From assembly GCF_046105845.1 (NCBI RefSeq), contig NZ_CP151004.1: DNA of 64,000 bases; one strand, 5' to 3'. Under the pieces are notes generated by a model. The model worked only from the letters and a program-made list of their open reading frames with translations, did no database searches and was not told where the DNA came from. The position numbers were made by a program, and so were the translations under genes. This stretch comes from Escherichia coli (GTDB taxonomy: Bacteria > Pseudomonadota > Gammaproteobacteria > Enterobacterales > Enterobacteriaceae). Position 1 is the stretch's first letter. Each line of letters starts with the position of its first letter. Below, piece by piece: positions 40,077 to 53,293 of the stretch.

Positions 40077-42101
<2,025 letters not shown>

Positions 42102-48277: not shown

Positions 48278-50467
48278 ATGTTTGTGGAGCATAACCTGAT
48301 AAAAAATATCAAGATATTCACACTAGCGTTTACGCTCACCGTGGTACTTATTCAGCTATCCCGTTTTATTTCGCCACTTGCCATTATCCATTCCAGTTAT
48401 ATCTTTCTGGCGTGGATGCCACTGTGCGTAATGCTGTCAATCTTGTTTATCTTTGGCTGGCGCGGTGTCGTTCCCGTTTTATGCGGGATGTTTTGCACCA
48501 ATCTGTGGAACTTTCATCTCTCTTTTTTACAGACCGCGGTCATGCTCGGCAGCCAGACGTTTGTGGTGTTGTGTGCCTGCGCAATATTACGCTGGCAGCT
48601 GGGGACGCGTTGGCGTTATGGATTGACCAGCCGATATGTCTGGCAACGTCTTTTCTGGCTTGGTTTGGTGACGCCGATCGGCATCAAATGCAGCATGTAT
48701 CTTGTGGGGAGCTTTTTTGATTTCCCGCTAAAGATATCCACCTTTTTCGGCGATGCGGATGCCATTTTCACAGTCGTTGATTTACTAAGCCTTTTCACCG
48801 CTGTGCTGATTTACAACATGCTTTTCTACTATCTCACTCGCATGATTGTAAGTCCCCACTTTGCGCAGATATTGTGGTGCAGGGATATCGCTCCGTCGTT
48901 GGGCAAAGAGAAACGCGCATTTACCTTAAGCTGGCTGGCAGCGTTAAGCGTGCTGCTACTTCTGCTGTGCACACCGTATGAAAATGACTTTATTGCCGGT
49001 TACCTGGTGCCCGTTTTCTTCATTATCTTTACCCTCGGGGTCGGTAAGCTCCGCTATCCGTTTTTAAATCTCACCTGGGCTGTTTCAACGCTTTGCCTTC
49101 TGAATTACAACCAGAACTTTTTGCAAGGGGTGGAAACCGAATATTCGCTGGCATTTATTCTCGCGGTGCTGATTTCCTTTAGCGTTTGCCTGCTCTATAT
49201 GGTGCGCATTTATCATCGCAGTGAATGGCTTAATCGCCGCTGGCATTTGCAGGCGCTGACCGATCCGTTAACGCTCCTACCCAACTTTCGTGCGTTAGAA
49301 CAAGCGCCGGAGCAAGAGGCGGGCAAGAGTTTTTGCTGCCTGCGCATTGATAATCTTGAGTTTATGAGTCGTCATTACGGCTTAATGATGCGCGTTCACT
49401 GTATCCGATCAATTTACCGTACGCTGCTGCCGTTGATGCAGGAAAACGAAAAGTTGTATCAATTGCCGGGTAGTGAACTGCTGTTAGTGCTGAGCGGGCC
49501 GGAAACGGAAGGGCGACTCCAGCATATGGTTAACATCCTGAATAGTCGGCAAATTCACTGGAACAATACCGGGCTGGATATGGGCTATGGTGCTGCCTGG
49601 GGGCGTTTTGATGGAAATCAGGAAACCCTGCAACCCTTGTTGGGGCAGTTAAGCTGGCTGGCGGAGCAATCCTGCGCACATCATCATGTGCTGGCGCTGG
49701 ATAGCAGAGAGGAGATGGTTTCCGGGCAGACCACTAAACAGGTGCTATTGCTGAATACCATTCGTACGGCGTTAGATCAGGGTGATTTGCTGCTCTACGC
49801 CCAGCCAATTCGCAACAAAGAGGGTGAAGGTTATGATGAGATCCTCGCGCGACTGAAATATGACGGCGGCATTATGACCCCGGATAAGTTTCTGCCCCTT
49901 ATTGCTCAGTTTAACCTTAGCGCGCGTTTTGATTTGCAAGTGCTGGAATCCTTGTTGAAGTGGCTGGCAACACACCCTTGCGACAAAAAAGGTCCGCGCT
50001 TTTCAGTCAATTTAATGCCGCTCACGCTGCTGCAAAAGAATATTGCCGGGCGGATTATTCGTCTGTTTAAGCGTTATCACATCTCCCCGCAGGCGGTCAT
50101 TCTTGAGATCACCGAGGAGCAGGCGTTTTCTAACGCAGAAAGCAGCATGTACAACATCGAGCAACTGCATAAGTTTGGCTTCCGGATTGCGATTGATGAC
50201 TTTGGCACCGGCTATGCCAACTACGAACGGTTAAAGCGTTTGCAGGCTGATATCATCAAAATTGATGGTGTCTTTGTGAAAGATATCGTCACGAATACGC
50301 TGGATGCGATGATTGTGAGATCAATTACCGATCTGGCGAAAGCGAAGTCATTGAGTGTGGTCGCGGAGTTTGTCGAGACGCAACAGCAGCAGGCGCTATT
50401 GCATAAGCTCGGGGTGCAATATCTGCAAGGGTATTTGATTGGTCGCCCGCAGCCATTAGCTGATTAA
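48278..50467 (+). CDS. pdeA: Cyclic-di-GMP phosphodiesterase PdeA (YfeA): N-terminal membrane sensor domain, degenerate GGDEF, EAL domain
   Basis: 729 aa MFVEHNLIKNIKIFTLAFTL..; C-terminal EAL signatures (..IAIDDFGTGYANYERL..); ORF-track extension (48218) rejected. Confidence 0.92.
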   Translation: MFVEHNLIKNIKIFTLAFTLTVVLIQLSRFISPLAIIHSSYIFLAWMPLCVMLSILFIFGWRGVVPVLCGMFCTNLWNFHLSFLQTAVMLGSQTFVVLCACAILRWQLGTRWRYGLTSRYVWQRLFWLGLVTPIGIKCSMYLVGSFFDFPLKISTFFGDADAIFTVVDLLSLFTAVLIYNMLFYYLTRMIVSPHFAQILWCRDIAPSLGKEKRAFTLSWLAALSVLLLLLCTPYENDFIAGYLVPVFFIIFTLGVGKLRYPFLNLTWAVSTLCLLNYNQNFLQGVETEYSLAFILAVLISFSVCLLYMVRIYHRSEWLNRRWHLQALTDPLTLLPNFRALEQAPEQEAGKSFCCLRIDNLEFMSRHYGLMMRVHCIRSIYRTLLPLMQENEKLYQLPGSELLLVLSGPETEGRLQHMVNILNSRQIHWNNTGLDMGYGAAWGRFDGNQETLQPLLGQLSWLAEQSCAHHHVLALDSREEMVSGQTTKQVLLLNTIRTALDQGDLLLYAQPIRNKEGEGYDEILARLKYDGGIMTPDKFLPLIAQFNLSARFDLQVLESLLKWLATHPCDKKGPRFSVNLMPLTLLQKNIAGRIIRLFKRYHISPQAVILEITEEQAFSNAESSMYNIEQLHKFGFRIAIDDFGTGYANYERLKRLQADIIKIDGVFVKDIVTNTLDAMIVRSITDLAKAKSLSVVAEFVETQQQQALLHKLGVQYLQGYLIGRPQPLAD

Positions 50468-50516: not shown

Positions 50517-51719
50517 TTACAGCACCAGTGCTGCGATTGACGCAGACAGCACACTCACCAGGGTAGAGCCGTAAACCAGTTTCAGACCGAAGCGAGAAAC
50601 CACGTTACCTTGCTCTTCATTCAGGCCTTTAACCGCACCAGCGATAATCCCGATAGAAGAGAAGTTAGCGAAGGAAACCAGGAACACAGAGATGATGCCT
50701 TCAGCACGCGGAGAGAGCGTGGAAGCAATTTTCTGCAGATCCATCATCGCAACGAACTCGTTGGAAACCAGTTTGGTCGCCATGATACTGCCCACTTGCA
50801 GTGCTTCACTGGAAGGAACACCCATCACCCATGCAATCGGATAGAAGATGTAGCCCAGGATGCCCTGGAAGGAGATGCTGTAGCCAAACCAGCCAGTCAC
50901 GGTGGCAAACAGTGCGTTCAGCGCGGCGATCAGGGCGATAAAGCCGATCAGCATCGCGGCAACGATAATGGCAACTTTGAAACCTGCCAGAATGTATTCA
51001 CCCAGCATTTCGAAGAAGCTCTGACCTTCGTGCAGGTTGGACATCTGGATGTTTTCTTCACTGGCATCAACACGGTAAGGGTTGATCAGCGACAGCACGA
51101 TAAAGGTGCTGAACATGTTCAGTACCAGCGCCGCAACGACGTATTTCGGTTCCAGCATGGTCATGTATGCACCAACGATGGACATCGACACGGTGGACAT
51201 CGCCGTGGCAGCCATGGTGTACATGCGATTGCGGGAGATTTTGCCGAGGATATCTTTATAGGCAATAAAGTTTTCAGACTGACCCAGAATCAGGGAGCTG
51301 ACGGCGTTAAAGGATTCCAGTTTGCCCATACCGTTGACTTTGGAGAGCAGGAAACCAATTGCGCGGATAATTACCGGCAACACGCGAATGTGCTGGAGAA
51401 TACCGATCAGTGCAGAGATAAAGACGATTGGGCACAGCACTTTCAGGAAGAAGAATGCCAGGCCTTGATCATTCATGCTACCAAAGACGAAGTTAGTCCC
51501 TTCGTTGGCAAATCCGAGCAGTTTTTCGAACATTTCGGAGAAGCCTTTCACGAAGCCTAAACCAACGTCGGAGTTCAGGAAGAACCACGCCAGTAACACT
51601 TCGATAACAAGCAGTTGAATAACATAACGGATACGAATTTTTTTGCGGTCGCTGCTTACCAGCAGTGCGAGAATCGCAACAACGGCAAGTGCCAGTACAA
51701 AATGAAGGACGCGGTCCAT
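50517..51719 (-). CDS. nupC: Nucleoside:H+ symporter NupC
   Basis: 400 aa [53 protein letters not shown]..; ORF-track extension rejected. Confidence 0.95.
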
Positions 51720-51984
51720 ATTTGCTCCAAATATGAGGCAGGTTAAATTTCCGTGCACATTCTATGTAACATGGTTAAGGAAAACGAGATCTGACACACA
51801 CTATAATGACGTCCTGTGACCAGCTTCAAAAATAGTGAGCTGTCATACATTTCTGCTATGTTGTGTATGGAAGCTGAAAGTTATGTAAATGTGCTAACAT
51901 TAAACATAACCATAACATTCAAGTCATCAATCTTTTCGTAGTCATAATCCTGGTCTATCAGAGAAATCACCACAACCCATTTAA

Positions 51985-52005
51985 ATGAATTTGATAATCA
52001 TTCTC
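51985..52005 (+). promoter_or_regulatory. Putative Fur box in mntH promoter
   Basis: tgaatttgataatcattctcg resembles Fur consensus GATAATGATAATCATTATC; about 50 nt upstream of mntH. Confidence 0.55.
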
Positions 52006-52020
52006 GTTTGGCATAGCATG

Positions 52021-52042
52021 AAACATAGCAAAGGCTATGTTT
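52021..52042 (+). promoter_or_regulatory. Putative MntR operator in mntH promoter
   Basis: Perfect inverted repeat aaacatagc-aaag-gctatgttt, 13 nt upstream of mntH start. Confidence 0.6.
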
Positions 52043-52045
52043 TAG

Positions 52046-53293
<1,248 letters not shown>

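Follow-up and report, generated by a model that had tools for sequence, protein, structure and literature searches.

The closest described systems are the mntH promoters of Salmonella enterica and of Escherichia coli K-12. The S. enterica promoter carries orthologous versions of three elements, an OxyR site, a Fur box over the -35 hexamer and an MntR repeat between the -10 hexamer and the ribosome-binding site, details that are reportedly set out in Kehres et al. (2000, 2002) and Ikeda et al. (2005). The K-12 promoter is the same locus as the one analysed here, and it likewise has a Fur box over the promoter, an adjoining AAACATAGCAAAGGCTATGTTT palindrome and dual repression by iron and manganese. 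Such repression was the subject of a 2001 paper by Patzer and Hantke (J Bacteriol 183:4806), the title of which, as cited in PMC2189734, PMC4676285 and PMC8632737, is ‘Dual repression by Fe2+-Fur and Mn2+-MntR of the mntH gene’. mntH-lacZ fusions are responsive to Fur and MntR (PMC4676285; PMC8788741), with the Fur dependence reported in PMC4676285; a review assigns separate MntR, Fur and OxyR sites to the E. coli mntH promoter (PMC8632737); and the mntH sites of E. coli, Salmonella and Shigella were used for a published MntR matrix (PMC3182930).

That both iron and manganese repress E. coli mntH has been on record since 2001, and the Fur and MntR operators of mntH are an already characterised control region, none of it new. 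No discovery is made here; what the analysis does indicate is that an experimentally supported operator pair is recoverable from raw sequence by the scan. This analysis contributes the motifs, where they lie with respect to the predicted promoter and how well they are conserved, and the regulation by Fur, MntR and OxyR comes from the literature. Taking these together, we consider it very likely that the interval is the sigma-70 promoter-operator region of E. coli mntH, with one promoter under the control of Fur, MntR and OxyR.

The nupC–mntH interval and its promoter

The window is the whole stretch of DNA that was analysed, 64,000 nucleotides of E. coli sequence, and the interval under study lies between the divergent genes nupC and mntH. 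The features to which we refer are as follows.

50517–51719, minus strand: nupC, the divergent neighbour that bounds the intergenic region
51944–51980, no strand assigned: OxyR-like site, ATAGnTnnnAnCTAT-N7-ATAGnTnnnAnCTAT, ending 10 bp upstream of the -35 hexamer
51985–52042: interval within the nupC/mntH divergent intergenic region, directly upstream of mntH, with the sequence ATGAATTTGATAATCATTCTCGTTTGGCATAGCATGAAACATAGCAAAGGCTATGTTT
51985–52074, plus strand: ypeD (b4819, ‘protein YpeD’, 29 aa; RefSeq), lying over both operators and the first 20 nt of mntH
51986–52006, no strand assigned: Fur operator, comprising the 19-mer GAATTTGATAATCATTCTC (51987–52005) and the 7-1-7 unit TGATAATCATTCTCG (51992–52006)
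51991–51996, plus strand: predicted -35 hexamer of the mntH promoter, TTGATA, inside the Fur box and invariant in the alignment
52014–52019, plus strand: -10 hexamer, TAGCAT, predicted by promoter scan
52021–52042, no strand assigned: MntR operator, AAACATAGC-AAAG-GCTATGTTT, identified from its perfect inverted repeat, related sites, matrix score and conservation
52044–52050, plus strand: Shine-Dalgarno region of mntH, AGAGGCA, read from the sequence
52055–53293, plus strand: mntH, NRAMP-family Mn2+/H+ symporter, identified from its ORF, NCBIfam NF001923 and the RefSeq annotation

The mntH ORF runs for 412 codons from its ATG at 52055, and in a profile search its product matched NCBIfam NF001923, ‘Mn(2+) uptake NRAMP transporter MntH’, with 622.6 bits. 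The gene order in the RefSeq annotation of strains 042 and K-12 is pdeA/nupC, ypeD, mntH, ypeC, and the remainder of the window is ordinary E. coli chromosome, with the eut operon at one end and ypdB at the other. A query of 501 bases that spans the site had matches in 5,424 of 5,426 complete E. coli genomes, many of them 100% identical, and the nupC–mntH region is part of the E. coli core genome. The alleles of strain 042 and strain 13E0767 are identical to that of the window over all 501 bases, and the K-12 promoter differs at one base in 118, a position outside both operators; in contrast to K-12, the window strain, which is a non-K-12 strain, is without IS186 beside nupC. The region is absent from two of the 5,426 genomes, and one E. 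coli assembly has a second copy of the intergenic region on a plasmid-typed record.

We scanned a genome collection with MntH and retained the 80 closest loci, which are from Enterobacteriaceae and encode proteins of 89–99% identity; the 130 nt upstream of each mntH were then aligned, giving 81 sequences, that is, the window and 80 species. The conserved blocks in this alignment are the OxyR-like site, the Fur box, a TAnnnT hexamer, the palindrome and the Shine-Dalgarno region, in which GAGGCA is conserved, while the sequence between these blocks varies. Similarly, within E. coli we found substitutions in the spacer between the Fur box and the -10 hexamer and none in the operators. In one of the aligned sequences, that of Trabulsiella odontotermitis TbOT1.10 (L032), 16 bp (ATATTTCAGAGGCAGA) made up of the end of the MntR box and the Shine-Dalgarno region are tandemly duplicated, and the duplication lies after the palindrome and before the mntH ATG.

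The promoter scan found a single plus-strand sigma-70-like promoter in 51700–52100, composed of TTGATA, a 17-bp spacer and TAGCAT, with a score of 9/12. The -10 hexamer occurs in the 81 aligned sequences as TAGCAT, TAGCTT, TAATAT, TAACAT, TAGTTT or TAGCCT; it varies at positions 3–5 only, and thus TAnnnT is kept. From this predicted promoter we infer a transcript start at ∼52026. The elements are therefore read in the order OxyR-like site, Fur box with the -35 hexamer, -10 hexamer, MntR box with the inferred +1, Shine-Dalgarno region and ATG. One base lies between the predicted -10 hexamer and the first base of the palindrome, and the palindrome spans the inferred start.

The classical 19-bp Fur consensus is GATAATGATAATCATTATC, and Fur boxes are also described as overlapping 7-1-7 units. 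The original prediction placed a Fur-box-like sequence upstream of the palindrome, and this string, TGAATTTGATAATCATTCTCG, is indeed present at 51986–52006, base 51985 being the A of an ATG. In the Fur motif scan of the window, the 19-mer at 51987–52005 matched the consensus at 15 of 19 positions, including all 11 of the core TGATAATCATT (51992–52002). This is the joint-best match in 64 kb, with one other site equal to it and ∼0.1 expected based on simulated windows. The 7-1-7 unit TGATAATCATTCTCG matches at 12 of 14 positions, and the box contains the predicted -35 hexamer. Across the alignment, TTGATAATCATTCTC (51991–52005) is nearly invariant, as is TTGATAATCATTC(T/G)C in the orthologous promoters of the window and the 80 species.

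Canonical Fur boxes share the 11-bp core TGATAATCATT with the mntH box, and the overlap with a promoter hexamer is as in classic Fur-repressed genes; compared to canonical boxes, however, the mntH box matches at only 15 of 19 positions and its left 7-1-7 unit is weak (11/14). The weak left unit fits the modest two-site, 25-bp Fur cluster that Chen et al. (2007) predicted at -56 from mntH (PMC2189734), a position that corresponds to ∼51999 in the window, the centre of the Fur box. The Salmonella Fur box is nearer the consensus than that of the window, and the sequences from two Salmonella subspecies (L015 and L016) combine an identical palindrome with an ATTATCA Fur half-site.

Two features of the region were absent from the original prediction: the OxyR-like site upstream of the -35 hexamer, and the annotated small ORF ypeD, to which we return below. 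OxyR sites consist of four ATAG/CTAT elements spaced at 10 bp and abutting the -35 hexamer, a degenerate motif. The OxyR-like site, with its four elements, matches 13 of 20 specified positions, which is the maximum in the window and is reached at only 22 of ∼128,000 positions counted on both strands. Orthologous sites score 13–16 of 20 in 76 of the 81 aligned sequences and are found at the same 10-bp offset from the -35 hexamer (TTGATAA) in 67 of them, and the CTATCAGAGAAATCA block within the site (51955–51969) is strongly conserved throughout the alignment.

We infer a steric mechanism for each of the two repressors. Fe2+-Fur on the Fur box at 51986–52006, which contains the -35 hexamer, would keep RNA polymerase off the promoter when iron is sufficient. 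Mn2+-MntR, a dimer of the DtxR family, would bind the palindrome at 52021–52042 when manganese is sufficient, and bound MntR would block either open-complex formation or promoter escape, because a single base separates the palindrome from the -10 hexamer and the inferred start falls within it. The OxyR-like site at 51944–51980, just upstream of the -35 hexamer, would give H2O2-dependent activation. The proposal that mntH is subject to dual repression by iron and manganese is supported by the published regulation, the motif scores, the promoter geometry and the conservation. Its companion, that the palindrome is in position to occlude the start of the transcript, agrees with the predicted promoter, the inferred +1 of which falls within the left arm.

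The MntR palindrome

A perfect inverted repeat with 9-bp arms had been predicted between the Fur box and mntH, and we find it as described: the left arm AAACATAGC (52021–52029), the loop AAAG (52030–52033) and the right arm GCTATGTTT (52034–52042). The spacings given for it are also correct. The palindrome starts 15 positions past the last base of the Fur box, with 14 bases between the two (52007–52020), and its last base lies 13 positions before the A of the mntH ATG, since 12 bases (TAGAGGCACAAG, including AGAGG) separate them.

The palindrome is not rare as such. Perfect inverted repeats with 9-bp arms and loops of ≤10 bases occur at about 12 distinct loci in the window, compared to about 3.7 hits expected from simulated sequence; the majority of the remaining loci resemble terminators. 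We therefore rejected rarity as evidence, and the significance of the palindrome comes instead from the identity of its motif, its position and its conservation.

With respect to motif identity, the 9+4+9 palindrome has an ATAGC-N4-GCTAT core with A/T-rich flanks, and the other E. coli MntR sites, one in the mntS/rybA promoter and two at mntP, share both the core and the flanks. In K-12, the rybA/mntS 5' end has one copy of the motif, with 4 mismatches, and the region upstream of mntP has two, with 3 mismatches each; chance predicts 0 sites in these 3-kb stretches. Of all these sites, only that of mntH is perfectly palindromic. A matrix made from the three mntS/mntP sites only ranked the mntH palindrome first in the window, with 28.5 bits versus 12.8 for the runner-up and 15.9 for the best of 20 simulated windows, a comparison that is partly circular, the mntH pattern having been used to find the sites at mntS and mntP. 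The mntP sites differ from the mntH site in that they lie ∼360–420 bp upstream of the mntP ATG, and they were reportedly found to be activating, not repressing (Waters et al. 2011).

With respect to conservation, 80 of the 81 sequences in the alignment share AAACATAGCAAAGGCTAT exactly, and the remaining one differs from it at a single spacer base. The conserved symmetric part of the operator is formed by the inner five pairs, ATAGC-N4-GCTAT, which are invariant in all 81 sequences. The perfect 9-bp symmetry on which the original prediction drew holds for the window but not as a general feature of these promoters, as it occurs in only 21 of the 81 sequences, from Escherichia, Salmonella, Kluyvera and most Citrobacter. 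A full-text literature search with the operator sequence gave no useful match.

Additional copies of parts of the operator occur nearby. The heptamer CATAGCA is directly repeated 12 bp apart, at 52012–52018 and at 52024–52030, so that the -10 hexamer TAGCAT duplicates the core of the MntR half-site. Salmonella differs from the window in having an extra exact copy of AACATAGC 12 bp upstream; the sequences with an exact AACATAGC at the position of the upstream repeat are those of Salmonella arizonae, Salmonella diarizonae and E. whittamii. We considered a second MntR dimer site formed from the upstream CATAGCA, and rejected it, as there is no inverted partner at the right spacing; the MntR operator might still reach as far as this copy, which overlies the -10 hexamer. 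Half-site copies are also found near nupC, namely GCTATGTT (51855–51862) and AAACATAACC (51902–51911), which lie about 200 and about 152 bp, respectively, upstream of the mntH ATG. A G(C/T)TATGTT element is present at -198 to -219 in 13 of 16 other loci checked, from several genera, and this element may be part of the nupC promoter rather than an MntR site.

The small ORF ypeD

The annotated ORF ypeD covers both operators, and it was called from ribosome profiling, with initiation reported at its ATG (51985) and conservation listed on the basis of tBLASTn matches in Salmonella and Citrobacter koseri (bioRxiv 10.1101/2021.07.02.450978). This ATG is 41 nt upstream of the inferred mntH start, and the reported translation thus implies an additional, unmapped upstream transcript, beyond the simple one-promoter model. 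If ypeD is genuinely translated, the two operators would sit inside a functional upstream ORF, and there are two ways in which this could matter. In the first, a longer transcript would start from a promoter, as yet unmapped, that lies before 51985, and Fur and MntR, when bound, would be roadblocks to it. In the second, translation of the short ORF would modulate initiation at mntH; the short ORF ends on the mntH start codon, as ATGA, in 16 of the 81 sequences, among them those of Enterobacter and several Citrobacter. Either would place a second layer of control, translational or at the level of elongation, on a textbook promoter. We judge this arrangement to be improbable. A regulatory meaning of ypeD translation, or of an upstream transcript, is the sole residual novelty at this locus, and it is unlikely.

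If the interval were conserved because it encodes YpeD, with the operator-like motifs incidental, we expected the reading frame to be maintained. The RefSeq annotation, the ribosome profiling and the tBLASTn matches in Salmonella and Citrobacter are all in keeping with a coding function, and the ypeD ATG is kept in 72 of the 81 sequences. However, the ORF that follows from the aligned ATG varies from 8 to 31 aa, and its frame relative to that of mntH can be any of the three. A stop ends it after 11 codons in 39 of the 81 sequences, and after 8 codons in Escherichia sp. E1V33, E. whittamii and the E. coli species-representative strain SCPM-O-B-8794. Even within E. coli the frame is not maintained: the window allele is found in 3,358 genomes, but at least 871 have TAA at codon 9 and 42 have TGA at codon 9, so that ypeD is cut to 8 codons in at least 913 of 5,426 genomes. 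The DNA motifs, in contrast, are invariant across these changes of frame.

Other properties of ypeD point in the same direction. There is no NCBIfam model for it and no Shine-Dalgarno sequence upstream of its ATG, and the ‘TG’ of this ATG lies at the left end of the extended Fur box. Indeed, translation of the Fur box gives the peptide MNLIIIL, and translation of the MntR box gives KHSKGY. We rejected coding constraint on ypeD based on ORF integrity in the 81-sequence alignment and among the E. coli alleles, and regard it as very unlikely that coding of YpeD accounts for conservation of the interval. In most genera, as in at least 913 of the 5,426 E. coli genomes, the reading frame of ypeD is cut short or shifted, and its apparent conservation, judged from these sequence comparisons, is therefore probably a by-product of the operators. 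Thus, as a caveat on the annotation, conservation of YpeD is not to be read as evidence of peptide function.

Annotation of the ORF by PGAP is inconsistent on identical DNA, which is variously given as ‘YpeD’, as an 18-aa ‘hypothetical protein’ that starts at 52018, or as nothing. In two of the aligned sequences, from Enterobacter soli (L027) and from a metagenome-assembled ‘Proteobacteria’ genome (L050), the upstream ATG shares the frame of mntH and no stop lies between the two; if used, it would add a 23-residue N-terminal extension to MntH.

RNA structure and chance resemblance

An alternative to a DNA operator is that the palindrome works as a hairpin in the 5' leader of the mntH transcript, where it would affect translation or stability or be part of a manganese-sensing RNA. 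Transcribed in full, the 22-mer could pair into a hairpin of 9 bp directly before the Shine-Dalgarno region, and the 55-nt fold of 52021–52075 has an MFE of -12.6 kcal/mol with z = -2.2. There is moreover a precedent for manganese riboswitches in E. coli, at mntP (PMC8632737). If the helix were the conserved element, changes in one arm should be matched in the other, and they are not. Pair 4 is C:A in 60 of the 81 sequences (G52039 to A) and pair 2 is A:C in 12 of the 81 (T52041 to C), while the partners, C52024 and A52022, never change, such that all changes are in the right arm. Over the 81 sequences there are 72 non-pairing cells, with 8 more in which there are alignment gaps, and zero compensatory or G:U changes.

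Three further results stand against a hairpin. An Rfam scan gave no family match, the sole hit being a chance snoRNA with 17 bits against a threshold of 50. The same motif is found at other MntR-regulated promoters at non-equivalent transcript positions. Finally, the full hairpin would not be transcribed, because the predicted start (∼52026) is inside the left arm. With respect to a structured leader or a yybP-ykoY manganese riboswitch in particular, we found neither an Rfam match nor covariation in support of a helix. Since the right-arm changes are uncompensated and Rfam provides no match, we favour a protein operator and consider the hairpin highly improbable; the pattern of a fixed inner core with tolerant outer positions fits a protein-binding site.

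That the motifs are a chance resemblance, an AT-rich Fur-like promoter beside a fortuitous palindrome, is extremely unlikely: 9-bp inverted repeats do occur at about 12 loci in the window and the AT-rich Fur consensus does overlap the -35-like TTGATA, but both motifs are top or joint-top scoring in 64 kb, both are near-invariant over 80 species while their flanks diverge, and regulation by Fur and MntR is published.

Matches to Fur motifs are also found elsewhere in the window. The second site that matches the Fur consensus at 15 of 19 positions, GATAAAGATATTCATGATG, is on the minus strand at 40134–40152, in the 3' end of yfeR just before yfeN, and this match is probably due to chance. In addition, TGATAAAAAATATCA at 48297–48311, near the start of pdeA (yfeA), matches the Fur 7-1-7 unit at 12 of 14 positions.
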